Positions 30,721 through 64,000 of a DNA stretch of 64,000 nt are shown in pieces (position 1 is the stretch's first letter; each line of letters begins with the position of its first letter). Made by a program: the position numbers and the translations under genes. Source of the DNA: a bacterium (lineage in GTDB: Bacteria; UBA8248); NCBI GenBank assembly GCA_965207065.1, contig OZ242260.1, positions 64,001-128,000 of the forward strand. The letters run 5' to 3'. The notes below the pieces were generated by a model. It saw nothing but the letters and a program-made list of their open reading frames with translations. It did no database searches and had not been told where the DNA came from.

Positions 30721-30761
30721 TCATATACCAAGTACATCCGAGTCGAGTAGAAAGAAGAACA

Positions 30762-30864
30762 GGGGCTACCCGTTGTTCCCGCTCCCGGCTCGAGGACTCA
30801 AACTCATAGCAAGGAGCGGTACTGTTTGCTTCATCACGAGGGAAACAACCAACGGGCAACCCCC
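30762..30864 (-). ncRNA. Putative three-way-junction structured RNA, copy 1
   Basis: Covarying stems relative to the copies at 47991, 52755 and 61375. Confidence 0.7.
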
Positions 30865-31000
30865 TTTTTCGCTCTCCTTTTATCGCCTCAGGCCTCGGGG
30901 CTTAACCCCGGGGGCCTGAGGCGTCTTTCTTCCTGCTTGTTTACGCCGAACGCGCTGAACGAACACACCGGGGCGTTCCCAAGAGGAAACACCGCCTTGC

Positions 31001-32644
31001 TTATTTCTTGCGCGCACCAAACGCGCCGGCAGCAATTCCGTTCGTGAAATTGGCGTTAAATTCGCCAACTAGGACGGGAGGTGCGTCCGCCTCTGCACGG
31101 TTGGCAGCACTGTGGAACTGTCCACTGATGGAACCGGCTGCGCCGCCGCCGGCCGCCGTTCCGTTTTCCAAAGCGAATCCACTAGTAATGCCGGCCGCTA
31201 CGTTCACGTTCCACTTGTTAGCCGGACCGCCATCGAGATCAAAGTTCGATATCGTCCCTTGTATCGTATTCGCATTTCTCAGGGTTGATTCATCGAAATA
31301 AGCCTTAAGACTCACATCCGCCGTGAATCTTCCGGAGGTCGCCGTGTCCAGGGTACCATCTTCTTTCTTGGCTTCGTGAACATAGACGCCAGCAGCTTCA
31401 CCCTCATATTCGGCCATGCCCGTGACGGCATCAAGGCTGGTCGCATTTGGAAGGCTGGACGTCGCGAAGGTCTGGACCGTTTCGTACTCGGTGACATTGC
31501 CGCCCTGCGTCTTTGTGTCGAGCCAGAAACCATAGGTCATATAGTCGCCATCCGGCTTTGATACCGTGGCGCCAGCAGCCGGGGTGAATTCCCATTCGCT
31601 TGCGTTCAGTTCATTGAACTTGCCCATGGTATTGGTTGAAACGGTACAACCACCGGACGCTACACACCTGAAAGTACCGGACGCGCCATCAAGCATTCCC
31701 GAGAATTGCGACGCCCTGCCTGTGGCGGTATCGGCGTCATATTGAACATAAGTCTGGGTTTGGTTTGCCTGGTTAGGGAATTTCGAGGAAGCAATTTTCC
31801 CGTTATCGGCCTCTAAGACCGCATAGGTGTCCATTGCGGTCGTGTCAGTATCCCTGTCGACGGTGAGATCATATTCACTGCTGAATGCAACCTGATCGGG
31901 AACTTCGATGTCCGAGTGCAGAACGATGATTTTCCTGTCCGATCCTATGTTCCGAACGAGCATCTGTCCGTTACCGAAGGAAGCCACCCTTTCGTACATC
32001 GGGTCGTTATCGGCAGGAAGCGCTCCATCCGCGACTTCGACCTCGACAGCACTTCCCGTGTGCTTGACTGTCACGACATAATTTTCAGTCGCAGTAGGAG
32101 CATCTAAATCCGTTGGAGCTGTGGTCAAATCAAATGGTCGGGCGGCCGTGGTGGCCGAATCTCCCTCCGTGTTGATGGCCGTTTTTTTCGTGAGGGCGAC
32201 TTTGTTCGCGGCCGCCTTGGTCGCCGCGGCGGCGGCGGACGCATCAGCGGTGCTCTTCGCGGTCGTCACCATGCCGACATATTTCATTACGTCGGCGAGT
32301 GCGGCTTCCGCGTCCGCCTGGGCGTCTTCCGCATGCGCCGTGTTGTCGGCCGCCTGGGCCGTGGCATTCGCGGCCATGGCGTCCGCTACCCTGAGTTCCG
32401 CTTTCGCGTAGGATGCCTCATCGTACATTTTATTCGCTTCGACAGCGGCCAAGGCCGCCTGCGCGTCCTCATAAGCCTGCATGGCCGCGCTCTTCGCATC
32501 TTGGAGCGACGTGTCCGGCGTCGTTCCCGGATCCGTCGTGTCGGCAGTCCCGCCGCCGCCGCCGCAGCCTGCCAGCGCGATGGCGAACACCGCCGCCAGG
32601 GCAAAAGCGTAAAACTTGCTTATCGATTTCTCTCTGAACATCAT
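31001..32644 (-). CDS. TbpB-like surface lipoprotein, cassette A (type 1 N-terminus)
   Basis: Lipobox LAG-C, poly-Gly, Ala-rich stalk, DYMTYGFWL, beta-rich C-terminus ending GAFGARKK. Confidence 0.85.
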   Translation of the reverse strand: MMFREKSISKFYAFALAAVFAIALAGCGGGGGTADTTDPGTTPDTSLQDAKSAAMQAYEDAQAALAAVEANKMYDEASYAKAELRVADAMAANATAQAADNTAHAEDAQADAEAALADVMKYVGMVTTAKSTADASAAAAATKAAANKVALTKKTAINTEGDSATTAARPFDLTTAPTDLDAPTATENYVVTVKHTGSAVEVEVADGALPADNDPMYERVASFGNGQMLVRNIGSDRKIIVLHSDIEVPDQVAFSSEYDLTVDRDTDTTAMDTYAVLEADNGKIASSKFPNQANQTQTYVQYDADTATGRASQFSGMLDGASGTFRCVASGGCTVSTNTMGKFNELNASEWEFTPAAGATVSKPDGDYMTYGFWLDTKTQGGNVTEYETVQTFATSSLPNATSLDAVTGMAEYEGEAAGVYVHEAKKEDGTLDTATSGRFTADVSLKAYFDESTLRNANTIQGTISNFDLDGGPANKWNVNVAAGITSGFALENGTAAGGGAAGSISGQFHSAANRAEADAPPVLVGEFNANFTNGIAAGAFGARKK

Positions 32645-34653
32645 TTAGTGAGTCCTCCTGAATACATAGAAAAAGGGATTTTCAGCGAATTTCCGGCTTT
32701 CTCTAAATCTCTAACATCCTCCTCTCCGTTGAATTCCATTATCAAACCCTGGTTTATCTTTATTAGCCGGAGAGCGGATACTACCGGGCTCGCCTTCCGG
32801 ACTGTATGGGACACGATACCTTATTGGAAAAAAGTTGCTCAGCCGATTAAGCTTCCTGTTACGTTGAACCCGTCTCCTCTTCCGGGCGACGACCACTCCG
32901 TTCGAGAACCCTTCCACCGGGCCGATGCAACCTCGATACCGACATGCCTTCCGGGTCGGCTGCAACGTTTGCCCCGAGGCGCCAATTCCCGATATAGTAC
33001 CCGCCTGTTCCGAACCTCATTAGCTGAGTATATCGTTCCCGGCGAGCAACCCCGCGCCAATCGCGCCTCTTGGATTCTATTACTACACTGATATTGCTAC
33101 AGCTTTTTCCGTTTTGTCAAGGTGATTTTCTCGCTAAATTCGGCCCTGGGTCAGAAGACCTCAATCGGTGGGCGGGCGAAACATAAAAACCATCACCTTA
33201 TTCACTATCGTTTATATGAATATGAAGTAAACTCCGGTCGATTGTCAAGTTATTCCCTTTGCCCGGCGGGCTATTGCCGAACCCGGCGTGCCGACCCTGT
33301 CTCATCAAACGTTTGCCCCTTGTCTCCTTCCGGCCTGCCATCGTTCCTGTGTCATTCGCTCCAGGGTAGCTCGGGCGACCGGGATACCCTCGGGTTTCTC
33401 CCCGCCCCGGAACGCAATCCCCCGGGCCCGCAGGCGTATGCCCGATGAGCGGAGCGCCGGAATAGCGGCGAATCGAGCGTTCCGAGCGGCATTTTTGCCG
33501 CGAGTTGCGTCGCCGCGCATACGGGGTGATGACGGAAAAACCCTCGGGGAGGCGAGCCGGCGATGGCGGGCCGCACCGGACCGGACGCGTGGGTCCCGAA
33601 GCGCCGAACCACAAAACCGGGAGGTTCCGGCAGCCCCGTTGACAGCATGATGATGAAGGCCGTTTTCCGGATCGAGTCCTCGACTCATCCACGGGCTCGG
33701 AGTTTCTTTCTTGTCGGTGAGCGGGGCAGGGCGAGAAAGCCGCAGGCCGGACCCGTAGCGCGGCCGAGCTTCAGGTCAAGCGTAATCAGCGGACAACCCG
33801 GCGCCACGTACCAGGCGTCGCAGCAGGCCAGGTTACTCCGCAATGCCCATATCCGTTCGGCAAACGGCGTGAAAGGAAACAACTCCAGGTGTATTCGCAG
33901 CAGAATGATTTCGTCCGGGGAGAGCAACTGCTGCTGCGAGTTCCGTCATATCAGGCGCATGGGGGGTTGCGTCGTTGCGATATCGGCGTGGAGTCGAAGC
34001 GTATTATATATAGAGGAGGCGAACCCGACCGCGCCAGGGTCTGCCCTGGAGTCTGGTTGAAATTCATGAATTTTGCAGATTTTCAGGAAGACAGGCAAGG
34101 AACTTCATCACGGACATGGGTATGATGCGCATCTTGTTTACCATGGCGCCGGGCAATGTCCGGATATACGTATTCTCCTGACGACTCTCTCGCCGGTAAG
34201 GAACACAAAGCCGGGACTCCGATCGCGCAAGCAGCGCAGTCGGGAAATGAACGGAATGCCCGTTCAATATCCTTGCCGTTTCTCCCGCTCGGTGAATATC
34301 GATTCTTCTATGGGGAATGGGAACCATTACCACCAGGCGGGGGGAGAAGCCGAACGTATCCAACCGGAGCGTCGCAACTCATGGCCGGGGAAACGCCTTC
34401 ATCCCGAAAAAAGCGGCCCGCGACTTCATATCAGGCCGAACCGTACAATCGGTGACGGATGCCAGGCCAACCCGATGCATCGGCCGATACGGTGCGGAAG
34501 AAGCGGTGCGAGACCCGCAGCATGGCGGAGGGAGAAACATTACCTCAGATCAGGTTCGCTCAAAACGGGATTCGGCAAGTTGCGCCGAAAGAGTTGCGCA
34601 GACACGCATTCCTGCTAGAATCGCTCATTCCCCCGAGAAATACCCCGCCCTGG

Positions 34654-36213
34654 ATGACCCGTAAAGAGACGGGAGAATCGATGATGGCGACCGGATATTC
34701 CGGCGAGACCTGGAACACGAAGGAATTCTTCGAGCGCGCCGGCGCGGCGGATACTCTCCGCCGCCTGCAGGACGGAGACGATGTCAACGCGCGGGATGAA
34801 CGAGGATGGACGCCTCTTCACAGGGCGGCGGCGTTCGGCAGGACGCCCGGGGTCGTGACCGCGCTGGTCGAAGCCGGGGCCGACCCGAATGCGCGGGATG
34901 AAGACGGAGCGACTCCCCTGCACGCAGCGGCGCTCGGCGCGACTCCCGGTATCGTAACGGCTCTGGTTCAGGCCGGGGCCGAGCCGAACACAGCAGAAAA
35001 AACCGGATGGACTCCCCTGCACGCGGCGGCGCGGTTCAACGGAACCCCCGGGATCGTGACGGCCCTGGTGCGGAGCGGGGCCGACCCGGACGCTCGGTCC
35101 ATCAAGGGAGAGACGCCCCTGCACGAGGCGTCCGCCAACTGCAGGACTCCCGGGGTCGTGCTCGCGCTGCTGCGGGCCGGCGCCGACGCGCGCGCACGGA
35201 ACCAGGAGGGAATGACGCCTCTGCACCGCGCCGCTGACTCCGGCGCGATCCCCGGAGTCGTGACGGTACTGGTGCAGGCGGGCGCCGACGTGAACGCACG
35301 CTTTGACGGAGTGACCCCCCTGCACCGGGCGGCGGCGAACAGCGAAACCCCCGAGATAGCGGAGGCTCTCATCCGGGCGGGCGCCGACCCGCTGGCGCAG
35401 GATGAAACCGGCTGGACACCTCTCCACTGGGCGGCGGCGGGCGCGAAGGATCCCGGGATCGTTGCAGCGCTGCTCGATGCGGGGGCCGACGTGAACGCGC
35501 GCGCGTACGATGGGCAGACTCCCCTGTGCGTGGCGGCGCGGTTCTCCTCCGCCGTCGGGGTCGTGGCGGCCCTGGTGGAGGCGGGCGCCGACCCGAAAGG
35601 GGAAGATGAAAAAGGACGGACGGCTTTGCACCGCGCGGCGATGAACGGCGGTATCCCCGATGTGGCGTCGGTTCTCGTCCGGGCGGGCGCCGACCCGAAC
35701 GCCCGGGACAAAGCCGGTTGGACTCCGCTGCACCGGGCGGCGGCGGGCGGCAGGCATCCCGGGATTGTGGCGGCCCTCATCGAAGCAGGCGCCAATCCGA
35801 ATGCGCGTACCGGAGAGGGCGTGACTCCCCTGCACTGTGCGGCGGGCTCCGGCGCAACCCCCGGGGTCGTGACGGCCCTCATCGATGCCGGGGCCAACCC
35901 GAACGCCCGGGACAAGAGAGGATGGACGCCCCTGCATGATGCGGCGGGCGGCAGGACGCCCGGGGTCGTCACGGCCCTGGTCGAAGCCGGCGCCGCCCCG
36001 AACGCGCGGGACCGGAAAGGGCGCACGCCCCTGCACGTGGCGGCGTGTCTCGGCAAGGCCGTCCCTGCCGTCGCGCAGGCCCTGCTTGCCGCCGGCGCCG
36101 ACCCGGCGGCAAGGGACGAGGGCGATGAAACGCCCCGGGATCACGTCAGGATGGATTCTCCGCTCTGGGGAACGGAGGTTTTCCGGCGCCTGAAGGACGA
36201 ACGGCGTCCATAG
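34654..36213 (+). CDS. Ankyrin-repeat protein (519 aa), paralog of 2728..4389 with one repeat fewer
   Basis: Ankyrin repeats; 34-aa difference after repeat 2. Confidence 0.95.
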   Translation: MTRKETGESMMATGYSGETWNTKEFFERAGAADTLRRLQDGDDVNARDERGWTPLHRAAAFGRTPGVVTALVEAGADPNARDEDGATPLHAAALGATPGIVTALVQAGAEPNTAEKTGWTPLHAAARFNGTPGIVTALVRSGADPDARSIKGETPLHEASANCRTPGVVLALLRAGADARARNQEGMTPLHRAADSGAIPGVVTVLVQAGADVNARFDGVTPLHRAAANSETPEIAEALIRAGADPLAQDETGWTPLHWAAAGAKDPGIVAALLDAGADVNARAYDGQTPLCVAARFSSAVGVVAALVEAGADPKGEDEKGRTALHRAAMNGGIPDVASVLVRAGADPNARDKAGWTPLHRAAAGGRHPGIVAALIEAGANPNARTGEGVTPLHCAAGSGATPGVVTALIDAGANPNARDKRGWTPLHDAAGGRTPGVVTALVEAGAAPNARDRKGRTPLHVAACLGKAVPAVAQALLAAGADPAARDEGDETPRDHVRMDSPLWGTEVFRRLKDERRP

Positions 36214-38667: not shown

Positions 38668-40184
38668 GGGTCTGTTGAAAAACCCCCCACATTATGGTTC
38701 GGTATATGGATACTATCTCGCCCGAGATGGGAGTTCCCTCGATGTTGGACCGCAAGAGGCGCGAGCAGCTGGATTTGTTCGTGGCCGGTTCGCTGGATCA
38801 GCTGATCCCCGAGGATCACGTTCTGTACCGCGTGCATCAGGTACTGGATTTGAGCTGGCTTCGCGAGGAGGTGGCGGCGTGCTATTGCGCGGACAACGGT
38901 AGTCCGGGTTTGGACCCGGAGGTGGTGGTGCGATTGATGCTGGCGGGCCTGTTGCTGGGCTACGTTCACGACCGGCGTCTGCTTCGCGAGGCGAAGGTGA
39001 ACCTGGCGATCCAGTGGTTCATCGGGTACGGGCTGCACGAGGAGTTGCCGGATCATTCGAGCCTGACGCGGGTCCGTCAGCGGTGGGGGGAAGAGCGCTT
39101 CAAGGAGATATTCCGGCGCACGGTGCGTGCATGCCTGGAGGCGCAGGTGGCGAAGGGAGAAGTGGTTCACGTGGACGCTTCGTTGATACGCGCGGACGTG
39201 AGCTGGGAGAGTCTGGCGGAGCGTCACGCGAGCGAGGTGGTGCGGGAGAACGACTCGGAGGAGGAGACGGAGAAGAAGCGTGGTGGCCGGGGTTCGGGGA
39301 AGGTGAGCCGTACGGACCCCGACGCGCGCCTTGCGCGCAAGAGCGCTCGCGCGGGGTTCGAGCCGAGCTACAAGCACCACGCGGTGGTGGACGATGAGCG
39401 GGGTGTTGTTCTCGACGTTGCGGTGACGGAGGGGACTTTGAACGAGCGGGCGATGATGGCGTCCCAGTTGGAAGCGGTATGGGAGGTATCGGGTTGCCCG
39501 CCCGGGTTGGTGACGGCGGATTCGGGCTACGCCTACTCGGAAGTCTACGCGGCTTTGGAGCGGCTGGGTGTCGCTGCGCTGATACCGGCGAAGAAGGAAC
39601 CCTTGCAGAGCCGTGTTCCGTTGCGGCTGTTCCGCTACGACGCGCGCCACGACTTGGTGAAGTGTCCGCGCGGCAAGAAGCTGCTCCCCCGGCGGCCCGC
39701 CAAGGGGGGGCGTTATTATCGTTCGAGGACGCGGGATTGCGCGGGCTGCGCACTGGGCGCCGGTTGTTTGCCGAAGGGTTGGAGGAGCAAGGTGGTGCTG
39801 ATACCGCACAACTACCCGGCGCTGTTGCGCGCGCGTCGGCGCCACGCGCGCCGGGGGGAGGAGGAGCGTCGGCAGTGGCGCCGGCACATGAGTCGCTCCG
39901 AAGGCTACCACGGCGAAGCGAAGAGTTGGCACGGACTGGCGAGGGCGGTGCGCCGCGGACTCGACAACGTGCGGATCCAGTCCTACCTGACGGCGACTGC
40001 GGTGAACCTCAAGCGGCTGGCCGCCGCCCTTGCGGCGCATTTATTCGCCCTCAGGAGGGCCTGCGCCGCCCGGAGACGCGGAATGCGCGTTCCTGGCGGC
40101 TTCACGCGCCGATTGGGCTTGCTCTCCCAAGCCGCGTGAGCCGCCAAAACACCCGTACCCAACACCGGGTTTTTCAACAGACCC
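38668..40184 (+). mobile_element. Intact IS1182-family insertion sequence
   Basis: Perfect 18-bp terminal IR GGGTCTGTTGAAAAACCC; 5-bp target duplication ATGAT (38663-38667, 40185-40189). Confidence 0.93.
38742..40139 (+). CDS. IS1182-family transposase
   Basis: LPDHSSLTR, VDASLI, SRTDPDA, ADSGY, EGYHGEAK. Confidence 0.9.
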   Translation: MLDRKRREQLDLFVAGSLDQLIPEDHVLYRVHQVLDLSWLREEVAACYCADNGSPGLDPEVVVRLMLAGLLLGYVHDRRLLREAKVNLAIQWFIGYGLHEELPDHSSLTRVRQRWGEERFKEIFRRTVRACLEAQVAKGEVVHVDASLIRADVSWESLAERHASEVVRENDSEEETEKKRGGRGSGKVSRTDPDARLARKSARAGFEPSYKHHAVVDDERGVVLDVAVTEGTLNERAMMASQLEAVWEVSGCPPGLVTADSGYAYSEVYAALERLGVAALIPAKKEPLQSRVPLRLFRYDARHDLVKCPRGKKLLPRRPAKGGRYYRSRTRDCAGCALGAGCLPKGWRSKVVLIPHNYPALLRARRRHARRGEEERRQWRRHMSRSEGYHGEAKSWHGLARAVRRGLDNVRIQSYLTATAVNLKRLAAALAAHLFALRRACAARRRGMRVPGGFTRRLGLLSQAA

Positions 40185-40539: not shown

Positions 40540-41349
40540 ATGCGCATGATAATGAAATCCCGTCGGGTACACACCAAAGATTATATCAGAAACCTTCTCG
40601 CTAGCGGGAGCCATCACTTTACTTCAAGCGACGCTCGCGAAGCGCTTGGCGTGTCTCCGGACGCCGCCAAACTCGCCCTGAACCGACTGGCCCGGCAAAA
40701 TATGATCGCCCAACCCTCCCGGGGCTTCTACGTAATCGTTCCTCCGGAATACCTCTCTCTGGAGTGTCTGCCGGCGGACCAATTTATCCCGGCGCTGATG
40801 GAGCGCCTAGGGCAAACCTACTATTCAGGTTTGCTTTCAGCCGCGCAATACCACGGCGCGGCCCATCACCGGCCCCAGGAATTCCAGGTGCTGCTACACA
40901 AAGCCCGTCGGCCGATCCGCTGCGGCCGGGTGCGCGTGGTCTTCATCGTCCGCAAGCATCTTCGGAACGTACCTGCAAAAAATTTCAACACGCCCCGTGG
41001 CACGATTCGGGTCTCGACGCCAGAAGCGACGGCCGTCGATCTCGTCGGCTATTCTCACCATGCAGGTGGACTCGACCAGGTGGCGACCGTTCTCTCCGAA
41101 CTCGCAGTGCAGATCGATCCGGAGAAACTGGTGACGGCCGCGCAGACCGCGCCGATCACCTGGGCGCAAAGACTTGGATACCTGCTCACGTTCGTCAATG
41201 CCCGCGAACGGATCGTCCCTCTGAAGGACTATGTCAGGAGAGAAGCCCGGAGAACGGTTCCGCTTCTCCCCGGCGCATCAAGTGAAGAAGCGCCTCGCGA
41301 TGCGGACTGGAAGCTCTTCGTAAACACGGACGTAGAGCCGGACCTGTGA
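40540..41349 (+). CDS. AbiEi-family type IV antitoxin
   Basis: RGFYVIVPPEY, GLLSAAQYHGAAH, STPEATAVDL. Confidence 0.88.
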   Translation: MRMIMKSRRVHTKDYIRNLLASGSHHFTSSDAREALGVSPDAAKLALNRLARQNMIAQPSRGFYVIVPPEYLSLECLPADQFIPALMERLGQTYYSGLLSAAQYHGAAHHRPQEFQVLLHKARRPIRCGRVRVVFIVRKHLRNVPAKNFNTPRGTIRVSTPEATAVDLVGYSHHAGGLDQVATVLSELAVQIDPEKLVTAAQTAPITWAQRLGYLLTFVNARERIVPLKDYVRREARRTVPLLPGASSEEAPRDADWKLFVNTDVEPDL

Positions 41350-42185
41350 TCCCGCGCGACTATATCACCGAGTGGCGGGCGCAGGCGCCATGGGTGCAGG
41401 ATTTCCAAGTCGAGCAAGACCTCGTCATCAGCCGGGCTTTGATCGCGATTTTCAATCACCCGATCCTGGGAGAAGCGCTGGCCTTCCGGGGAGGTACGGC
41501 GCTCTACAAACTCCACATTCATCCCCCGGCCCGCTATTCGGAGGACATCGACCTCGTACAGGTCAGGACCGAACCGGCCGGGCCGATGATGGGAGCGGTT
41601 CGAGAAGCCCTCGATCCATGGCTCGGGAAACCGCAATACAAACAGACCAAAGGACGCGTGACATTCAATTACCGCTTTCAGTCCGAGGATGCGCCGCCCC
41701 TTCCGCTGCGGCTGAAAGTGGAAATCAATTCACGGGAACACTTTGCGGTTTACGGATTCACTCGGCTGCCCCTTACCGTGTCTTCGCGCTGGTTCGAGGG
41801 TAGTTGCGCGATCACCACGTATACGCTCGAGGAGTTGCTGGCCACCAAGCTGCGCGCCCTCTACCAGCGTCGTAAAGGCCGGGATCTTTTCGATCTTGCG
41901 GTCGCGCTCGAAACAGGAGCGCTCGACCCGGATCGGGTCGTCGCCGCGTTTGTGAAGTATATGGAGCGAGACGGCCACGAAGTGATGAGAGCCCTGTTTG
42001 AGCAGAACCTCCAGGCGAAACTGCGCGACCCGCAGTTCAACGCCGATATCGGCCCGCTTCTGGCGACCGGATTTTCCTGGGACGCCGATCAAGCTGCGGC
42101 AATCGTCCGCTCCAGACTGCTTGCGCGATTGCCGGGCGAGCCATGGCAGGGCGGCAAAGAGAACAAGGGAAACACGGAGGAGTAA
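41346..42185 (+). CDS. AbiEii-family toxin
   Basis: FRGGTALYK, RYSEDID, KLRALYQRRKGRDLFD. Confidence 0.9.
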   Translation: MIPRDYITEWRAQAPWVQDFQVEQDLVISRALIAIFNHPILGEALAFRGGTALYKLHIHPPARYSEDIDLVQVRTEPAGPMMGAVREALDPWLGKPQYKQTKGRVTFNYRFQSEDAPPLPLRLKVEINSREHFAVYGFTRLPLTVSSRWFEGSCAITTYTLEELLATKLRALYQRRKGRDLFDLAVALETGALDPDRVVAAFVKYMERDGHEVMRALFEQNLQAKLRDPQFNADIGPLLATGFSWDADQAAAIVRSRLLARLPGEPWQGGKENKGNTEE

Positions 42186-43346
42186 AAAGGGGCGCGGAAC
42201 CTGCGAGGATGGCTCGTCACTTTAGTTGGGGATGGGGTGACGGGCCCGTCTGCAAGTACTTGCCCCTCAACGATTTCTTGCCGGCAGCCATTCGTTACTC
42301 TCCGAGCGCCCTATCCTCAAGAATCTTTTCTTGATTCGATGTGTCGACACGCTCTCTTTTCATCGCCCACCAAGTATCGATTTCATCTTGAAATCATTCC
42401 TGTGATTGTGAATCCTGTTCTGAATTCGGCTTCAGGAACATGTGCTCAAGACGGAACGGGAATCGTTAAATTTTCGTATATCTCGATGAACCTTGATGGG
42501 CAGAGTGCGCAGCCCTTCTCAAAAGCCGGTTCGCGATAGCTTATCTCCGGGTATGCTACCCGGCCCTGAGAATTCCCTGATGAACATTATTCCCACGCCC
42601 ATGACGACCCCGGTTCGCACCTGCTGTGCCGTTTACAAAAATGACGATCTTTTTGACTGGTACTGCGACCGTGATCCAAAAAGTGTTTCCGCTCCGTCGC
42701 GGACTGGCAACAGAATTGCCGGGAGATTTACTGGAGACAATGTCGGAGAAGTACACGGCCGATCCTCGCTAAATACGGGAGCAAAAAGATTCGTCACTCC
42801 AAGGTCATTGCCTGGCCTTCGCTGCATCGGTCTGAGTGTGCAGGCTGAGATCGACGTCCGTGTTATTTTCATCAATACACAAATCTCCGTAACGTTGCTA
42901 TCGAATGCGCCACCGCTATAATCTCAAAATTCAGGTTTTTGAAGACATTATTAGGGTGAGATTCGAGCCGAGGCTTGTATGCACAAGGCGCAACGACTTT
43001 CGCCTCTGAGTGAATAAACGAGTTCGGAAACGTTTTGTCCAGAGGCAAAGAGGCAGCACCCAATGCGCAGGCTGGACTGATGATCGGCGACGAGAGCGGC
43101 AATCCGAGAAAGGTTGTTCTCGTTTCGCTATCATGTCACAAGCGCTTCCGGTGCTCTCTGGTCAGCAAAGCTGTCGGAGCTTAAATATCTGTTGACTATC
43201 ATGCCCCCACAAACCGTTATTTGAAATACGAGGAACCGTGGCGATGAGACAAGCGAAAATGCTGGGAGCCGTCGTGGTTTTGGCGGCAATTTTGTCCGGT
43301 TGCAAAACGACCGATACTGACTTCGATGAGAGTTGGAAGATGGCCC

Positions 43347-43530
43347 TGATGCGCTCCGGATAGAGAAGGCGTTCGGCGTTTCGATGGACACGCTGATGCG
43401 GTTGCAGAACAGCCACGACATCGCCTAGGCGCGAAAGCGCGAAGGCGAAATCTCGCCCCGTACAAGGGGCGCGTCGCTTGAGGCGTATTGGGAGTTGGGT
43501 GAAAACGTTTCCAGGACGATAGCGGCCGTA
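43347..43530 (+). pseudogene. HigA 3' remnant plus flank, repeated at ~54309-54485
   Basis: ALRIEKAFGVSMDTLMRLQ with an internal TAG; shared downstream sequence. Confidence 0.75.
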
Positions 43531-43809
43531 ACCCGGAAATGCGTTTCGTCAACTACTCCGTGCCGCTCCTCCTGCGTGGTGGCGGACCATGGCGCCTTGT
43601 CCATGAGCGAAGTTGCCGGGTGGGCGCTCGATCCCGACCCCCGGATGCGCGAGTTTCCATCAGTCGGCTTGCGATATGAGCACGAATTCGATCGAATCAC
43701 GCTCGACCGGCGAACGCCGCTGCGTCTCCGGGAACGTCGCCGCCTCGGGGGCGAGGGGCCACCGAACGCCCCCCTCTCGACCTACGAAAGCTCCTGAACA
43801 TCTTCCTGG

Positions 43810-44490
43810 CGAATCCTCGTGTTGACATGAATGCCGCATGCCGGATTGTGTTTTCTGCCTCTCGTGAAAATCTCACCCTGTATCCGGAATGAACGGGCGG
43901 TCTCGATTGCCACGCTCGAATGACGACACTCCCCCCGGGCGTCCGTCCGCTCACGCCGTGACGGCGGTTACAGGCTGGCCACGGCTTCGTACGCCGTCCC
44001 GACGGGACGGGCCCGGCGCGTTGTTTTCGGGACCATTCAAGTCGACAGAAGAGCCTGGCGCTTCGAGTGCATGAACGGAATAATAATATCCACTTTTTCT
44101 CGTAGAAGACAACAAAATCATCTGCATCTGGTTGGTGGTGAGGCCCACTTCGTCGCCTCCGCCGACGGCCGACAGCAGCGCGAAGGGGTGTGCAAAATTT
44201 GCAATGCATCCGATATCTTTTTGATTACGGGCTTTAAAATGTAGATTTCACGCCATAATATAACAATTATAACGAGATAAATATCAACTAGATATAAGAA
44301 TTCAACGCTATTCCAAAAGAGTCCTCCATCTAAAAAGCCGGAAATTCGCAGGAAAATCCCTTTTTCTATGTAATCAGGAGGACTCACTAAATGATGTTCA
44401 AAGAGAAATCGATAAGCAAGCTTTACGCTTATGCCCTGGCGGCGGTGTTCGCGCTGACGCTGGCCGGCTGCGGCGGCGGCGGCGGAACGG
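43810..44490 (+). repeat. Conserved upstream block and 5' end of cassette B (direct repeat of 57256-57885)
   Basis: Aligned by eye; near-identical over the last ~300 bp. Confidence 0.9.
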
Positions 44491-46076
44491 CCGCCGTTGA
44501 AGAAGAGACGCCCGCCATGCCGACACAGCAGGAAATGTGTGAGGGTGACGGCGGTCGGTATAACGCGGACGGTTCATGCTCCTCTGCCGCGGAAGTTGCC
44601 GAAGAAGGCGCCCTGAGCGATGCGCAGGAAGCCGCCATGATGGCCTATATGAAGGCCAAGGATTATGTAGAAAGCGCGGTGGACCCTGTGGCGATGTCGA
44701 ACGCGTACAAATACGCGGCGATGGCCAAGGAATCTTCCGACGCGGCGGAGATGGCCACGACTTCCGCAATGGCCATGACTCACCAGACAGCGGCCGAGAA
44801 GTACCGTGACATGGCGATGGAAGCTTCCATGATGGACGGCCTGGGAATTACCATGCTCGCGAACAGGCAGTTGAACAAAGCGCCAGAAGATTTGCAGGAA
44901 CAGCCTGACCCGCCGAAACCCATCACGAATGTAAGAAATGTCCACGCCGAGATAAATACTGTTTCTCAGACTACGACTCCGAACAGCGACGGGGCTACCG
45001 TACCTACGGTCGCGGTAACTTACGCCGCAACGGCAACTAAACCAACCTTTACAATTACCGACTATGAGGCTGGCGAATCACCAAAGAGTTTCTCGATGGG
45101 AAGCTTCATGGGAACCGAATTGGTGAACATTGAGACTGATGTAGGTGGAGTGGCCGGAAGAACGAATGTCGTTCTTTATTCAGACAGGGCGCAAACTGAA
45201 TCTGTAACCAATTATGCCGATAGCGGAGACGATTTCGTTGATGTCGGCGCTCTGGTGGGTGGCGCAAATCATGTAACCTCACTGTCAGAGGGACAGATTT
45301 CAGGAGCGATGGGAGATAAGGTAGAGGGCACATATAATACGGATTCGAAAGACAATAACCCGGCTGTATCGGGCGCCTTCTACTGTTCTATGACTCTATG
45401 CACCTTGAACGTAAATTCCAAAGGAATGATAACCGCAAACGTCGGCTATCAATTCCGTCCGGAATCCGGCAAGACAACAAAAGATGATACAAGCTATCTC
45501 ACCTTGGGCTTCTGGCTTACCGCTCCCACCGCCTTGACTGCGGAAGGGGCGGCGCCTGGCGGTATCGTGGCAGGCGCTTTTGGGATGGGGCAAGGAACTG
45601 CTGTTGAAATACCGGCCGCGTTAGAAGAAACGGCCACCTATGAAGGTATCGCTACCGGCCTGTATGCAACAAAGGACGGTATCAGCTATTTCAGTGGCGA
45701 CGCCATGCTCGAGGCTAACTTTGGACAGGTAAAGGACCTGGCTGATGATGCTGATGATACTACCGCTGGTTTCCGGGGAAGTGTAAGCGGAAGCATTTCG
45801 AACATCACTGCTGGTGGAATGAAGATGGAAGGTGAGCTCGGCTTGTCTGCTGCGAATATAGCCGGTGATACAACTGGCACATATTCCGGAAATACAAAAG
45901 GCAGCGTAGGAGACAGCAGGTTTGTTGGAAGCTGGAGAGGAACATTCTATGAAGCAGGAAGAGCGACCACTCCAGCCGATTCAAGGTATCCGATGTCTAC
46001 GGCTGGAACGTTCAGCGGTTATGATGAATTCAACAACTCCAGCATCTTGGGCGCTTTCGGCGCGAACAAGCAGTAG
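44391..46076 (+). CDS. TbpB-like surface lipoprotein B1 (type 1)
   Basis: LAG-C lipobox, poly-Gly, YLTLGFWL, ATYEG, ends GAFGANKQ. Confidence 0.85.
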   Translation: MMFKEKSISKLYAYALAAVFALTLAGCGGGGGTAAVEEETPAMPTQQEMCEGDGGRYNADGSCSSAAEVAEEGALSDAQEAAMMAYMKAKDYVESAVDPVAMSNAYKYAAMAKESSDAAEMATTSAMAMTHQTAAEKYRDMAMEASMMDGLGITMLANRQLNKAPEDLQEQPDPPKPITNVRNVHAEINTVSQTTTPNSDGATVPTVAVTYAATATKPTFTITDYEAGESPKSFSMGSFMGTELVNIETDVGGVAGRTNVVLYSDRAQTESVTNYADSGDDFVDVGALVGGANHVTSLSEGQISGAMGDKVEGTYNTDSKDNNPAVSGAFYCSMTLCTLNVNSKGMITANVGYQFRPESGKTTKDDTSYLTLGFWLTAPTALTAEGAAPGGIVAGAFGMGQGTAVEIPAALEETATYEGIATGLYATKDGISYFSGDAMLEANFGQVKDLADDADDTTAGFRGSVSGSISNITAGGMKMEGELGLSAANIAGDTTGTYSGNTKGSVGDSRFVGSWRGTFYEAGRATTPADSRYPMSTAGTFSGYDEFNNSSILGAFGANKQ

Positions 46077-46094
46077 AAACAGAGTATAACGCCA

Positions 46095-46385
46095 TCATCG
46101 GCCCCGGGCTCTCTGAGCCCGGGGCCGGGGGTTCTCAAAGCAAACGATTTATTGGACCTGGTTTCAACCGCCCGCCCTCTTCTTTCCCGGAAGGGGACGT
46201 AACCCTCAGGGGGCAAGTGATGAAAATGCTCAGATATTCAGGATTGGCGGTACTTGTCGTGTGCATTGCGGCATTTGCCTCCGGTTGCGGCGGTGGCGGT
46301 GGCGGCGGTACTGCGGATGATATGACGACGGTGATGGAATGCCCGCAGGGCAAGATCGGCACGTACCCGGACTGCATGGATCCGC
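46095..46385 (+). repeat. Conserved intergenic spacer and type 2 5' end (repeat of 59543-59835), with hairpin GGCCCCGGGCTC-TCT-GAGCCCGGGGCC
   Basis: Near-identical in cassettes B and C while the flanking coding cores differ. Confidence 0.9.
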
Positions 46386-47923
46386 CAAAGACCGATGCTG
46401 ACAGGATAGCCGACGCGAGACGGGAACTTTCAATTATCCTTACGAATGCCCGGGCACGAGCGGGGGCGGCGAGTTCGGCCGCGGCCGCGATACGGACCAA
46501 TGCCGACGCCACGCCCGCTCAAATCACGGACGCCAACAGCGAGAGTAATACGGCGCAAAGCGCCCTGGCGCGTATCGTGAGCGCGAATACTGCGGCAACC
46601 CTGGCCACTACGCCGGCGGAGGCGAATACGGCGCTTACGGACGCGAGAGCGGCTCAAGTCACTCTCAACACATCCGCATCGGCAATATCCAGGATTCAGG
46701 GCGCCGTGCAAGCGGCCGCGAACCGTCGCAGACAACAGGCAGCGAACGAGGCCGTCTTGACGGGCGGGTCCTCGCTCATCAAGCACTTGAGGGACAACAG
46801 GAAAGTATCCGATGCGGTTCTGAGTGGACTAGCGGCCACTTCCCTCGTGGGGGGGGCAACAGGTTCTACTACAGGCACCGCCACTTATCCGTACCACAAA
46901 GGTGACCCCGCAACGCAATATCCAACCCCCAGGAATACAGATAGAGGCGTGCTGGGAGTAACGGTATCGGTCGGTACGACGCCCGTATCGTCGAATAGCC
47001 AGACGGGCAAAATCTCCGGGTCAGGGCGTCTCTCTAAAGGCTTCGACCTGAAAGACGGCGGTAGATTCGCCACTGTCTACACGGATATTACGGTAGACAC
47101 AAGGGTAAGGCAAAAAGATGGGAATACCGCCACAGATACTGCCACAGAGGACACTACTGTAGGGGATACTGACGACGGTATAGACCAGCGGTATCAGTAC
47201 GTCGCCGACGATGATTATCTGCTCGCCGGAATCTGGCTCGATGATGCAACTGCCAGCACTTCCACCCTGATGGCATTTGGGTTCGGGAGTCAGGCTCTAG
47301 CCGCGACTCACGATTTCTGCACCGCTGCTGATGTAACTAACACTACTTCGCTGTCTAGGGCGTGCGGTAATGCGACCGGTAGAAACTTTAACGAGATAGC
47401 CGGATTCGTTGACGAAAATGAGAGCACGGAAGCAACTTACCGCGGGGGTGTGAACGGCGCGTATTTCGCCGGCGGAAAGGCCAGCCATTTCAAGGCGAAT
47501 GTATCGCTCACGGCTACATTTGTGCGCGGAACCGGGACAGATGCTACGGGCAGCAAGATTTCAGGAGAAATCACGGGCATCAGCGCCGGTGGAAGTTCCG
47601 TCACGGGAAGCATTGATTTGAAGGAACAGGCGCTTGGAAATGACATCAGCGGCGCTTTTGGAACTGATGGGGCCGGTGGTGATGCCGCTGGCGTAATAGA
47701 GGGTCACGCCTATACCGGCAGCTGGAAGGGCCAGTTCTTCGGAATGAGAGCCAGGAAACTGACTCCCGTTACAACCGGAACAGTTGCTAATAACGATCGA
47801 ACAACAACGACAACCTACACCCCGGACAAGCCTGGTTCTGTTGCAGGCTCGTTTTACGTCAACAGACAGACGGTTGGCGAAGGAAACGCCGCCTTCATCG
47901 GGGCGTTCGGGGCGCACAGGTAA
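46217..47923 (+). CDS. TbpB-like surface lipoprotein B2 (type 2)
   Basis: ASG-C lipobox, poly-Gly, DYLLAGIWL, WKGQFFG, ends GAFGAHR. Confidence 0.85.
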   Translation: MMKMLRYSGLAVLVVCIAAFASGCGGGGGGGTADDMTTVMECPQGKIGTYPDCMDPPKTDADRIADARRELSIILTNARARAGAASSAAAAIRTNADATPAQITDANSESNTAQSALARIVSANTAATLATTPAEANTALTDARAAQVTLNTSASAISRIQGAVQAAANRRRQQAANEAVLTGGSSLIKHLRDNRKVSDAVLSGLAATSLVGGATGSTTGTATYPYHKGDPATQYPTPRNTDRGVLGVTVSVGTTPVSSNSQTGKISGSGRLSKGFDLKDGGRFATVYTDITVDTRVRQKDGNTATDTATEDTTVGDTDDGIDQRYQYVADDDYLLAGIWLDDATASTSTLMAFGFGSQALAATHDFCTAADVTNTTSLSRACGNATGRNFNEIAGFVDENESTEATYRGGVNGAYFAGGKASHFKANVSLTATFVRGTGTDATGSKISGEITGISAGGSSVTGSIDLKEQALGNDISGAFGTDGAGGDAAGVIEGHAYTGSWKGQFFGMRARKLTPVTTGTVANNDRTTTTTYTPDKPGSVAGSFYVNRQTVGEGNAAFIGAFGAHR

Positions 47924-47990
47924 CGAAGAAAAACGCCTCAGACCCCCGGGTGTAAGCTCCCAGGCCTGAGCGAAAGAAGGAGAGCGAAAA

Positions 47991-48093
47991 GGGGGTTGCC
48001 CGTTGGTTGCTTCCCTCGTGATGAAGCAAACTGTACCGTTCCTCGTCATGAGTTTGAGTCCTCGGACCGGGAACGGGAGTAACGGGCAGCCCC
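47991..48093 (+). ncRNA. Putative structured RNA, copy 2
   Basis: GGGGTTGCCCGTTG/TAACGGGCAGCCCC closing stem plus two internal hairpins. Confidence 0.7.
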
Positions 48094-48134
48094 TGTTCTT
48101 CTTATACGCGATTCGTAAGTGCTTGATATATGAG

Positions 48135-48195
48135 AAAAAGGGACCTCCCTCTCTCCCAGGATCGACTGAAATTGAGAGAGGGCGGTCCCTTTCTT
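48135..48195 (+). terminator. Terminator-like stem after the RNA
   Basis: AAAGGGACC.CCCTCTCTC...GAGAGAGGGCGGTCCCTTTCTT. Confidence 0.55.
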
Positions 48196-48755
48196 ATGTG
48201 GACATCTATCAAGTTATGCGGTCGATGTAGATGCAGGAGTTTTCCGTTCTGGCTACCGTTCTTCGGTGCCGCGTATGCCTTTTCTTGTTCGTGCCTGCCT
48301 GTCGCAAGAGCACGAAAAACCTCCTGGCGGGTTTTCGCATCCCTTACCTCCAGGGAGCATATCATCGCACCATTTGATTCATGGTTTCGAAGCCGACCCT
48401 CTTGAATCGATGAATTTGAAATCAGGCAATTACTGATTCATGTTCCCGCCTTCGTGGGGATGAAGCGGGGAAGCCTGACGATGGATTCACCCGTAAACCC
48501 CACCAAGAAAGCAAATAAAGCTGTTTTCGCCGGGAGGCGATGGCGCACCCGGCGTTCCGGCCCCCCCGGTATCCGGTTCCGGCGGAAAACGCATGGCCTT
48601 GATCGCACGCCTGCGCGCGTCTGTCGTAAAACCGTCGAAATTCCGTTTTCTATCTGGTTGAAATCCTCATATATTCGTCATCCAGGACCACGGGAGCGCC
48701 GGCTGGAAATCCCCGGCGCCGCTCCCGCGACACGCAAGATGGGGAGAGCGACTCT

Positions 48756-52754: not shown

Positions 52755-52861
52755 GGGGTTGTCCGTTGGTTGCCTCTACATCGTCGGGAGGTAAATTGTA
52801 CCGTTTTCCTGGTTAAGAGTTTGAGTCCTCTCACCGGGAATCGGGAACAACGGGCAACCCC
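52755..52861 (+). ncRNA. Putative structured RNA, divergent orphan copy 3
   Basis: Same fold with compensatory changes; invariant GAGTTTGAGTCCTC. Confidence 0.7.
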
Positions 52862-56268: not shown

Positions 56269-56504
56269 CGCGCAGGCGTTTTGCGAACCCGGCTGCGGAG
56301 CCGGTTGAAGTAGGCCGCATCGGCGGTGACTGCCGATGGAGTGGAGGCACCTTCGAGAAGCAGACCGCGCAGATGCTCGCGATCCCGGTCCTTGCGGATC
56401 AACTCCCGAACATACTCGCTCGAAGTGCTGTAGCCGTGTGCGCTGACTTGATCGTCAACGAAGGACTTCAGCGACTCTGGTAGTGATATGTTCATCGTAC
56501 TCAT
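56265..56504 (-). CDS. parD: ParD-family antitoxin
   Basis: TMNISLPESLK, YSTSSEYVRELIR. Confidence 0.9.
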   Translation of the reverse strand: MSTMNISLPESLKSFVDDQVSAHGYSTSSEYVRELIRKDRDREHLRGLLLEGASTPSAVTADAAYFNRLRSRVRKTPAR

Positions 56505-56741
56505 GCTCCAATACTGCCTGTATTGGCAAAATTTGTCAAGAATACACAGACATGTATGGGCCTCGGGCGCGACTGTAATCGCCGCCGTGGTCCGATACTC
56601 CTGCGGTCCCTAACGCAGATGCTTTCGATGGGATGGATTGGCCCTCCCATCGCCTGCTTCAATAAGGCATGTCGTTTTCAAAATTGTGGTCCACAGAAAA
56701 ATAAAAAGGCCGTTATCAAAAGAATTCGCCTCCCAAGAGCG

Positions 56742-57110
56742 TCAAGTCACCGGTTCAGGACCCTGGTGAGGAATTGCGTCAACGGGATTAGCGCTCTCAT
56801 CATCAACTCGTTCCCGTAAATCATCCACCGATTTACCCGGCAATTCGGGAACGACTTCGGAGAAGTGCCGAACAATTCGCTCGATCTCATCCTTTTTTCG
56901 ATCCCGTTCCATGTCTCGTATTATTGCCTGCGCTGCGAATATAGCAAAACACAACAGGTGGATTTCCACCTCGGTTCGCGGCCATTCCCGGCGCTTGATA
57001 GCCCCCATCGCGAGTTCGACCACGAGCCTGTTGGGCGATTTTTCGCACCTTTCGGCTTCTATTACGAAGCACTTCCACTGCTTCGGCGTGACCCTGATGT
57101 TCTTTTGTAT
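56742..57110 (-). pseudogene. Paralog of 16236..16586 lacking an in-frame start for its N-terminus
   Basis: QKNIRVTPKQWK...SPNRLVVEL...REWPRTEVEIHLL. Confidence 0.6.
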
Positions 57111-57255
57111 TGATTGGCCATCGGTTTTTGGCTTATCCTTTTGTGAAGTTTATCACGCTGATTGGTCTCCAATCGGGCTTAATAATTTCGCTGGCATCGG
57201 GCGCACTACGTTTGGAGCGCATACATCCCCAAAATGCCTCCTGAATTTCTTCCTG

Positions 57256-57885
57256 TCGAATCCTCGCGCCGGTATGAACCCCGCATGGCGGATTGTGTTT
57301 TCTGCCTCTCGCGAAAATCTCATTCTGAATACGGAATGAACGGGCGGCCATCATTACCACGCCCGAATGACGACACTCCCCAGTCTTCCGTCCACTCATG
57401 CCGTGACGGCGGCGACAGGCTGACGGCGCCATTCAATTCGAAAGAAGATACGGGCGCTTTGGGTATATGAACGGCTCTGCAAGATCGATTTTTTCTCGTA
57501 GACGGCAACAAAATCATCCGCATCTGATTAGCGGTGAAACCCGCTTCGTCGCGCCCACCTCTCCGACACAGGCGCGACAGGACGCGCAGAATTTGTAATG
57601 AATCCGCTATCTTTTTGATTACGGGCTTTAAAATGCAGATTTAACGCCATAATCAAAGAATTATAACTAGATAAATATCAACTAGATATAAGAATTCAAC
57701 GCTATTCCAAAAGAGTCCTCCATCTAAAAAGCCGGAAATTCGCTGAAAATCCCTTTTTCTATGTATTCAGGAGGACTCACTAAATGATGTTCAGAGAGAA
57801 ATCGATAAGCAAGCTTTACGCTTTTGCCCTGGCGGCGGTGTTCGCGCTGACGCTGGCCGGCTGCGGCGGCGGCGGCGGAACGGCC
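57256..57885 (+). repeat. Conserved upstream block and 5' end of cassette C
   Basis: Direct repeat of 43810-44490. Confidence 0.9.
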
Positions 57886-59526: not shown

Positions 59527-59660
59527 CAGCGCACAACACCTTTGGCCTCGGGCTCTCTGAGCCCGGGGCCGGGGGTTCTCAAAGCAAACGATTCATTGGA
59601 CCTGGTTTCAACCGCCCGCCCTCTTCTTTCCCGGAAGGGGACGTAACCCTCAGGGGGCAA

Positions 59661-61310: not shown

Positions 61311-61374
61311 AAGAGCATGACGCCTCACCCGGGGTTAAGCCCCGAGGCCTGAGGCGGTAAAAGGAGAGCGAAAA

Positions 61375-61477
61375 GGGGGTTGCCCGTTGGTTGCTTCCCT
61401 CGTGATAGAGCAAACTGTACCGGTCCTTGCTATGAGTTTGAGTCCTCGAGCCGGGAACGGGAACAATGGGCAACCCC
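61375..61477 (+). ncRNA. Putative structured RNA, copy 4
   Basis: Same fold; directly after cassette C. Confidence 0.7.
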
Positions 61478-61519
61478 TGCTCTTCTTATACGCCATTTCC
61501 GGCGTAGATGGCAAACGAG

Positions 61520-61582: not shown

Positions 61583-61772
61583 CGTGCGGGGATGTTTTGA
61601 GGGGGGGGTGGCGCGGCAAACACTTCCTCCTCGGGGTTGTTAAAAAAGGCCTTACGGATCACGCCAAACCATTCTCCCCATGCAGAGTCCCCCCAACAAC
61701 CACTCCCCCCTTGAGGGTTCTTGTCGTCTGACGAGAGAGGAAATCACTCCCCTTTGCAGAGCGCTCAACAAC

Positions 61773-61975
61773 CACTCCCCCCTTGAGGGGGTCGGGCTTC
61801 CCGAGGGGAAAGCCCGACAGAGGCCGAGCGGTTTGTGCGAAGGCCGATGTGGTGGGGGGTGAAATGCGTATTATCCCCACTCCGAGTTATACCCCCCACC
61901 GAATCGCTTTCGGGCTTACGCCCTCAGCTCTTCGTCGGCTTTCCCCTCGGGAAGCCGACCCTCAAGGGGGGAGTG
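61773..61975. repeat. ~200-bp palindromic REP/MITE-like element
   Basis: CACTCCCCCCTTGAGGG...CCCTCAAGGGGGGAGTG with nested internal arms; partial copies at 61701, 61745, 63982. Confidence 0.75.
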
Positions 61976-63414: not shown

Positions 63415-64000
63415 TCAACCCCCCCTACCCCCCCCTTAACAGGAACAGCAACCCCCCCCCACCCCCCCCTTAACAGGAACAGCAACCCCCCCTACCCCCC
63501 CTTAACAGGGGGGCAAGAAAAAACAAATCCCTTTCTCCCTGGCAGGGGACATCGCCTTTTTATACCCCCCTGTTAAGGGGGGGTAGGGGGGGTTGGTTTA
63601 TGGGGTTTCCCCTTAAAGGGGGGGTTGGTTTTCAGGTCGAGAGGGGCGTCTCCTCTATCCCGAAAAAGTCATCATTTCGTGATTCGGCGTATGGAGTCGA
63701 CCGGGGAGGGAACGGTAGGGACAGGCACAGGGGCCTGTCCGCTACAATGAAACGGCAAGGGCTTTTTCAACAACCCCTACTCGCTTGGATTTGAACTGCC
63801 CGGTCGCGTCAAACCCTCCCGCATTGGTCGGGTTTGACCTCCCGCATTGGTCGGGTCAAAAGCAACCCCCCCTACCCCCCTTGTCAGGGGGGTAAAAAAA
63901 AGCAAAGCTCCCCCGACAGGGGGAATAAAAAAAAGACCCCCCTGTTAAGGGGGGGGAGGGGGGGTTGCTTTTAGGGGGTTTCCCCTCAAGGGGGGGTTGG
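63415..64000. repeat. C/G-rich tandem and inverted repeats (AACCCCCCTACCCCCCCTTAACAGG units)
   Basis: Three tandem units at 63417-63510, inverted partner at 63565-63595, further copies at 62024 and 63864-63965. Confidence 0.75.

Follow-up and report, generated by a model that had tools for sequence, protein, structure and literature searches.

How might a bacterium give different expression states to surface-lipoprotein genes whose ribosome-binding sites (RBS) have the same sequence? The question is raised by a stretch of 64,000 nucleotides (nt), hereafter the window (positions 64,001 to 128,000 of contig OZ242260.1, assembly GCA_965207065.1, GTDB lineage UBA8248), which belongs to a 4.48-Mb genome with 59.5% G+C. 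Three paralogous lipoprotein genes in it, A, B, and C, carry leaders with few or no differences between them from AAAGCCGG (44334 / 57728 / 32700) through the Shine-Dalgarno (SD) sequence and on into the signal peptide. Directly upstream of this shared core is a 26-nt slot that reads CTATTCCAAAAGAGTCCTCCATCTAA in leaders B and C and an unrelated, purine-rich GAGAGGAGGATGTTAGAGATTTAGAG in leader A. Within the B-type slot stands GAGTCCTCC, which in both leaders is the exact complement, 9/9 nt, of the extended SD GGAGGACTC. We favor, at a probability of roughly 55%, the reading that this box forms a cis anti-SD hairpin predicted to lower initiation strongly on the B-type paralogs, in a slot that is elsewhere taken by an orphan SD. 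An SD-sequestering hairpin as such is an ordinary, well-known device; the interest here lies in the family-wide architecture.

The complementarity in leaders B and C had been pointed out in a preliminary description of the window, and its coordinates and letters proved exact. The two boxes form an exact 9-nt complement 49 nt apart, present in two copies in the window, and 5 nt (ACTAA) separate the SD from the start codons ATG 44391 and ATG 57784. Counted on both strands, the 9-mer occurs five times in the window versus 0.65 expected, a number that 0/100 shuffles reach; the fifth occurrence, read on the plus strand, is the SD of the minus-strand gene A. A perfect complement of at least 9 nt to the SD region arises in the 75 nt upstream in 0.2% of 20,000 dinucleotide-preserving shuffles.

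Structure prediction places these letters where the reading needs them. In the minimum free energy (MFE) folds the SD of leaders B and C is bound by the 9-mer and sits inside a stem of 9 base pairs (bp), while the SD of leader A is largely single-stranded; folding had been named in the preliminary description as one of the checks on its proposal. The AAAAAG and CTTTTT hexamers, suggested there as an extension of the stem, do pair in the fold of leader B, as an inner stem, and are invariant in 9/9 B-type leaders. The outer stem is part of the MFE structure in 6/6 B-type leaders folded, and the isolated 9-bp duplex, a perfect helix with 6 GC pairs, is predicted at -16.1 kcal/mol.

How widely the slot and its anti-SD box are spread was followed with leader B as the query against 40 relatives. 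The part of the leader from 44334 on finds a match at E<=0.01 in 17/22 genus genomes, with up to 18 per genome, and dozens of paralogs in the genus have this core; the part upstream of 44334 is matched, among the 40 relatives, only in the sister species G014, besides the own genome. A B-specific query of 131 nt recovers five copies in the own genome (87-97% identical over its length), four in G014, and one partial copy without the slot in G017, which amounts to 3/23 genus genomes with the own genome counted. Seven leader copies are present in the own genome, five B-type and two A-type; the exact 9-mer is kept in three of the five B-type copies, a fourth reads ...TCG, and the fifth shows GAATCCTCC before a truncated gene. 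The boundary between slot and core at 44334 is backed both by the match limits in relatives and by contig loose ends: in four DNA contig sets the assemblies break at the repeated leader, and A-type and genus-type slots, derived from paralogs or other species, are found on the loose ends at that position. A flank-anchored pattern without the anti-SD requirement gave 13 matches in metagenome contigs, all of them in unrelated sequences. From loci L001-L085 we extracted 70 distinct leaders, leaving out weaker and partial matches, and their slots fall into 9 B-type, 3 A-type, 52-53 genus-typical, and 6 other.

What the slot holds elsewhere in the genus gives the B-type box its context. The genus-typical slot reads GAAAGGAGGT, and the 16S rRNA of this genome ends in ...CACCTCCTTTCT (...GGATCACCTCCTTTCT); in 53/63 leaders with a recognizable core (relatives L013-L082) the slot contains a 10-nt perfect complement of this 16S tail. 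An ATG, GTG, or TTG follows 4-12 nt behind the complement in 0/53 cases, so that it represents an orphan SD box, ~57 nt in front of the true SD. In leader A the orphan SD is weaker, a 6-nt AGGAGG with no usable start codon behind it, and the A-type copy in G014 carries the full 10-nt 16S complement. The preliminary description had called the 26-nt segment of leader A unrelated to its counterpart; this is so with respect to the B slot, and the link to a genus-wide orphan SD had been missed. Judged by their letters, B-type leaders depart from the family norm twice, because the orphan SD is gone and a CCUCC-containing anti-SD stands in the slot.

The orphan SD recalls the STAB-SD of Bacillus thuringiensis cry3A mRNA, an SD-like sequence that, in the passages of PMC4113751 devoted to it, binds to the 3' end of 16S rRNA, does not direct initiation, and blocks or stalls RNase J1. 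The likeness concerns the A-type and genus-typical slots, not those of B and C, and consists in a 16S-matching SD in the 5' untranslated region (UTR) that does not serve initiation. Two differences from the element as described in those passages are that no RNase J was found here (TIGR00649: best match 18.6 bits vs a cut-off of 400, in a genome 96% complete) and that the box can pair with the leader's pyrimidine tract, as it does in several predicted folds. Because RNase J was not found, the orphan SD box would need another mode of action, and here it is perhaps a standby site, a protection of the 5' end, or a partner of the pyrimidine tract.

The three slot types differ in predicted SD accessibility. 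The mean unpaired probability of the SD is 0.07-0.09 in B-type leaders (n=7; two copies with core indels give 0.14-0.27 and 0.00; single B-type leaders 0.00-0.21), about 0.6 in A-type leaders (n=3; single leaders 0.52-0.71), and 0.44-0.50 in genus-typical leaders (n=53; single leaders 0.13-0.67), and it barely shifts with the 5' end assumed for the RNA (75, 85, 100, or 130 nt ahead of the ATG). The opening energy, defined as the predicted cost of freeing the ribosome site at positions -14 to +3, has a median of 12.1 kcal/mol in B-type leaders (n=9; range 5.5-13.6), compared with 3.8 kcal/mol in A-type (n=3) and 4.1 kcal/mol in genus-typical leaders (n=52); the lowest B-type value, 5.5, is that of L007, the copy with the truncated gene. 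The open RBS that the preliminary description ascribed to leader A agrees with these predictions. In thermodynamic models of initiation, ~8 kcal/mol would correspond to a more than 10-fold drop.

The pairing is also largely kept among copies. The 8-mer GAGTCCTC is unchanged in 8/9 B-type leaders from two species, and nine contiguous complementary bases are retained in 7/9, in two registers: A-GAGTCCTC-C with GGAGGACTC, and T-GAGTCCTC-G/A with GAGGACTCA. Of the remaining two leaders, L046, whose SD has T changed to C, keeps 7 nt, and L007, the copy with the truncated gene, keeps 6 nt. Across the 9 B-type copies, 1/8 anti-SD columns vary, compared with 49/105 of the remaining B-specific columns upstream (one-sided Fisher p=0.06); leaving out the pseudogene copy gives 0/8 (p=0.009), and 6/105 sliding windows of 8 columns are as conserved as the anti-SD.

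A hairpin of this kind presupposes that the box is transcribed, which we infer from three indirect points. A candidate -10 hexamer, TATAAG, aligns with GATAAT in leader A and with TG-n-TATAAT in the homologous AT-rich region of G017 (L118), and would predict a start near 44304-44306, ~14 nt upstream of the anti-SD. Transcription of the box is further favored by the content of the homologous slot in most leaders, a 16S complement that is sensible only in RNA. Insertions or deletions of +1 and +3 nt between the pyrimidine tract and the SD would be intolerable for -35/-10 spacing, and the core therefore behaves as RNA; a promoter inside the conserved core was rejected, as these indels fall between its sole candidate hexamers.

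From a start at this position, the anti-SD box and the extended SD of the same mRNA (GGAGGACUC) would form a GC-rich stem of 9 bp, closing a 49-nt loop that contains the inner hairpin, and the 30S subunit would pay ~8 kcal/mol more at the B and C start sites than on leader A. B-type paralogs would have lost a ribosome-attracting or stabilizing 5' box and gained a ribosome-excluding one. Their translation would be weak by default, or would take place only once something opens or cuts the hairpin. Both the effect of the box on translation and any unlocking step are inferred.

The passages of PMC12697547 on Bacillus subtilis describe anti-SD-like sequences in mRNA whose pairing to the RBS inhibits initiation and favors decay. 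As in the hairpins treated there, a CCUCC-containing, pyrimidine-rich box on the same RNA pairs with the SD and predicted RBS accessibility is reduced; what differs from them is that here the box occupies an exchangeable 26-nt slot in a large paralog family, where it replaces an orphan SD.

Several observations weigh against a cis lock on the B-type leaders. Taken as a whole, the leader has a folding energy that is unexceptional against shuffles in B (MFE -22.0 kcal/mol, z -1.7, 10/200 shuffles fold as well) and C (-20.3 kcal/mol, z -0.7, 44/200), as it is in A (-20.6 kcal/mol, z +0.6, 139/200), and the case therefore rests on which bases pair. Double compensatory substitutions in the stem number none among the 9 B-type leaders, and all four kinds of stem change seen weaken pairing (C to G or C to A at position 9, in L007 a change of G to A, and in L046 one of T to C within the SD). 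Since descent or gene conversion links the copies, the conservation statistics overstate the support. The B-type variant is young, being found in 2/23 genus genomes with a slotless partial copy in a third. A scan for the sigma-70 consensus called no plus-strand promoter upstream of B or C, leaving TATAAG uncalled, and 0/6 listed sequencing runs are on record as RNA. Finally, B and C are both intact genes and selection on B is purifying, which makes a permanent lock unlikely and an unlocking route a requirement.

This last point bears on the wording of the preliminary description, in which B and C were "translationally locked" and either silent or conditional. The predicted pairing of the SD is consistent with a lock. 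Gene B, by its sequence, is a working gene: it is intact and has a ratio of nonsynonymous to synonymous substitution rates (dN/dS) of 0.36 against its 84%-identical ortholog L041, so that "silent" is disfavored and "conditional" or "damped" fits better. Because L041 carries the genus-typical leader, leader type and coding sequence have recombined.

A different role for the same structure has to be considered. The hairpin may form and serve chiefly in RNA processing or stability, as a site for a double-strand-specific nuclease or as a protective 5' structure, with protein output from B and C about equal to that from A. A long imperfect hairpin spans the entire leader, the B-type genes show intact frames and purifying selection, and the family-typical slot, an orphan SD, likewise resembles an RNA-stability device, all of which would suit such a role. 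However, the stem buries exactly the SD, and initiation should suffer regardless; the predicted 5' tail of ~14 nt leaves the 5' end accessible, and a nuclease site is not recognizable from the sequence. We regard this alternative as unlikely.

The next alternative involves a second feature of these modules. Every lipoprotein module is followed by an element of ~127 nt with a predicted three-way structure, present in 11/15 genus genomes searched and without an Rfam match. In a set of 27 copies, selected by the first 12 letters of the motif GAGTTTGAGTCCTC, the motif stands in 27/27 forward copies while some flanking stems vary. The tip of this 3' element has the 8-mer GAGTCCTC in common with the cis box, and over 9 nt it is the complement of GAGGACTCA. 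The preliminary description had the lock use the same sequence as the tip of a trans RNA, which is correct for the 8-mer and fails at position 9, where the tip (...GAGTTTGAGTCCTCG) has G and not C.

In this alternative the box would lie outside the mRNA, transcription starting downstream of it, and would be a footprint at the DNA level, either a 3'-element tip copied during module recombination or part of a promoter or operator, with the complementarity as a by-product. The B-type slots of L002 and L033 share 13 nt with the tip of the 3' element L103, an identity that beats 200/200 shuffles, each scored against 27 elements; modules do recombine, as the other leader type of the 84% ortholog of B illustrates, and no promoter was called by the scan. 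Yet in two of the four slots tested (L001, L012) the similarity to the 3' element is limited to 9-12 nt, short of significance (p 0.18-0.26), the 8-mer ranks with the most strongly conserved stretches of the upstream DNA, the box is preceded by the -10-like element, and in 53/63 leaders the homologous slot holds an RNA-type signal, the 16S complement. Common origin and convergence on the same target are both possible explanations of the likeness between slot and 3' element. We consider a DNA-level origin about as improbable as a main role in RNA processing or stability.

Far less probable is a chance complementarity that hitch-hikes on a recent module duplication. The near-identity of the five own copies leaves little more than one event to count, and pyrimidine and purine runs are frequent in these leaders, but 9 nt of complement are rare among the shuffles, and a second species keeps the pairing although the upstream DNA around it has diverged by 16-20%. 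Least credible of all is an RNA thermometer, in which the stem would melt with heat and free the SD: the general architecture, an SD within a 5' UTR hairpin, is there, but the SD is predicted closed from 10 to 60 C (unpaired probability <=0.011), and the perfect 9-bp, 6-GC helix has neither the mismatches typical of thermometers, the weak SD helix of the ROSE and fourU types, nor an Rfam match.

Other candidates were tried and rejected. A divergent open reading frame (ORF) using the anti-SD box as its own SD terminates after two codons (TTG-GAA-TAG). A coupled upstream ORF, with an ATG 8 codons upstream and a TGA overlapping the start, has a frame that is not conserved among the 70 leaders, being lost in the variants ...CTACTGTAATC... 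(in-frame TAA) and ...CTATTGATTC.... The segment between the two 9-mers keeps one orientation in 70/70 leaders, contrary to an invertible switch; compared by eye, the B slot in reverse complement has little in common with the A slot besides GGAGGA, which also speaks against such a switch. Control by CsrA/RsmA was set aside, with 0 matches to PF02599 in genome G000 (96% complete). Searched with the covariance models of Rfam 15, the whole window gave 0 matches at gathering score, and at E<=1 the region 43900-48300 gave two chance-level matches only, both on a terminator hairpin.

Returning to the cis hairpin as the preferred reading, the shared 8-mer raises the matter of how box and 3' element might work together. 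With opening costs counted, the predicted net binding of the 3' element is -6.4 kcal/mol on leader A and 0 to +2 kcal/mol on leaders B and C, which, being already closed, are predicted to be insensitive to it. The element may act in cis or in trans, if it acts at all. The icaR mRNA of Staphylococcus aureus, as cited in the passages of PMC12697547 mentioned above, is a case of pairing between 5' and 3' UTRs in which a 3' UTR motif closes the SD. The 3' element resembles that case as cited in that its motif is complementary to the family's SD and could close the RBS of leader A; it differs in that the motif is carried by a 127-nt three-way element repeated behind every module and in the predicted insensitivity of B and C.

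These parts could combine into a three-part post-transcriptional code, made up of an invariant extended SD GGAGGACUCA, an invariant 3' RNA tip UGAGUCCUC able to close it, and a 5' slot that is either open and ribosome-loaded, with an orphan 16S-matching SD, or locked in advance, with the anti-SD in cis. The 3' RNA of an expressed member would repress open-leader paralogs in trans and B-type members would remain locked until a specific cue, giving a hierarchical or mutually exclusive display of variable TbpB-like surface lipoproteins. We put this scheme forward as a speculation with the odds clearly against it.

The lipoproteins themselves are known by predicted fold more than by sequence family. 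A, B, and C all have the lipobox LAGC followed by a glycine run. Sequence-family searches gave no Pfam, NCBIfam, or PDB sequence match, and of 233 homologs at E<=1e-3, the 120 listed have "hypothetical protein" as their best name and all come from metagenome-assembled genomes. An AlphaFold model of B, built on a 38-sequence alignment, has a mean predicted local distance difference test score (pLDDT) of 71.4, and its top Foldseek matches are chains of hemophilin, HpuA, fHbp, and TbpB (E 4e-5 to 3e-3) at low template modeling (TM) scores of 0.17-0.21 on the query. The fold is probably that of TbpB-like surface lipoproteins, which B resembles in its lipobox signal peptide and in the Foldseek match of its model, and from which it differs in lacking a sequence-family match and in those low TM-scores.

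The positions of the features discussed are collected in Table 1.

Table 1. Leader, gene, and 3'-element features of the three lipoprotein modules, in window coordinates
Feature	Position (strand)	Remarks
Anti-SD, leader B	44319-44327 (+)	GAGTCCTCC; 5' arm of predicted 9-bp outer stem
Anti-SD, leader C	57713-57721 (+)	GAGTCCTCC
Extended SD, leader B	44377-44385 (+)	GGAGGACTC; 3' arm of predicted stem
SD, leader C	57770-57778 (+)	GGAGGACTC
SD, gene A	32650-32658 (-)	GGAGGACTC; predicted mostly unpaired
Inner hairpin, leader B	44332-44365 (+)	AAAAAG 44332-37 with CTTTTT 44360-65, small GGA/TCC helix; from MFE fold
Candidate -10 hexamer, B-type promoter	44293-44298 (+)	TATAAG; putative, from alignment
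GAATTCAACG box, leader B	44298-44307 (+)	Common to A-type and B-type leaders, directly upstream of slot
GAATTCAACG box, leader A	32736-32727 (-)	
B-type slot, leader B	44308-44333 (+)	26 nt; contains anti-SD
B-type slot, leader C	57702-57727 (+)	26 nt
A-type slot, leader A	32701-32726 (-)	26 nt, purine-rich; contains AGGAGG 32723-32718
Genus-conserved leader core, leader B	44334-44390 (+)	Runs on into signal peptide
Gene B	44391-46076 (+)	561-amino-acid lipoprotein; lipobox LAGC; TbpB/fHbp/hemophilin-like predicted fold
Gene C	57784-59526 (+)	580-amino-acid paralogous lipoprotein
Gene A	31001-32644 (-)	547-amino-acid paralogous lipoprotein
Structured 3' element, module B	47977-48103 (+)	Tip GAGTCCTCG 48056-48064; z -5.4
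Structured 3' element, module C	61360-61487 (+)	Tip 61440-61448; z -5.4
Structured 3' element, gene A	30752-30879 (-)	Tip 30799-30791; z -3.3

The surroundings of these modules yielded further observations. Modules B and C each contain a second lipoprotein gene (46217-47923; 59661-61310), and its intergenic leader and signal peptide (46093-46308; 59537-59752) are 98% identical between the two while the mature parts diverge, as in the first gene. A partial copy of the 3' element is found near 52755-52861, and a bidirectional terminator-like hairpin (48134-48197) follows the 3' element of module B. Upstream of the B-type copies, 320-540 nt are conserved in two species; the DNA ahead of B and C (about 43100-44390 and 56500-57780) lacks a convincing ORF for over 1 kb, and a short Arg-rich ORF (44071-44244 / 57467-57598) is shared, though not above the level of nucleotide identity. 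The homolog of this upstream region in G017 (L118) is AT-rich, has a perfect extended -10, and adjoins a tRNA gene on the opposite strand, with no lipoprotein leader behind it.

Two further leader arrangements occur in the wider set. L010 (genome about 599,320-599,660) and L027 belong to another leader family with the same extended SD (GGAGGACTCAC) behind repeated GGAGGCCTTCTC-like units, and there, too, the SD is predicted mostly paired (0.02-0.27). Genus-typical leaders (L013 and others) are preceded, about 90-130 nt before the ATG, by a conserved hairpin (..GTCCGCCGTATTTCAGGCGG..); in L013 a tRNA T-arm-like GTTCGAGTCC comes before this hairpin and TTTGTGAAGGCCCG after it.

Between the lipoprotein modules lie a DDE transposase (38694-40139, +), an AbiEi/AbiEii toxin-antitoxin pair (40540-42185, +), and a LysM-NERD protein (17008-18372, -). 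G/C-run repeats (ACCCCCCTGTTAAGGGGGGG...) stand at 63564-63628 and 63936-64000, spaced by 372 nt at the window end, with CCCCCCTTGAGGG motifs resembling them at 61690-61790, and a CRISPR-like array with the repeat ..GGTTCATCCCCGCGTGGGCGGGGAACAC is present beyond the window (genome C1, about 927,250-927,420). The window also encodes two large, eukaryote-like ankyrin-repeat proteins with repeats of 99-102 nt (2728-4389, -; 34459-36213, +). Eukaryote-like proteins with ankyrin repeats are often reported for host-associated bacteria.

Our findings bear on how a multigene surface family may be controlled after transcription in a lineage that is not yet culturable, and reporter tests of them would offer a handle on that control. 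If the lock is real, near-identical surface-lipoprotein paralogs would be given different default expression states by the swap of one 26-nt cassette, from SD mimic to anti-SD, that leaves promoter core, SD, and coding sequence untouched. Together with a 3' element that has the same seed, the lock makes a concrete model that is cheap to test by reporters, given that SD/anti-SD chemistry is universal. The three-part code, if true, would parallel antigenic variation at the level of translation, in a bacterium that is uncultured and probably host-associated.

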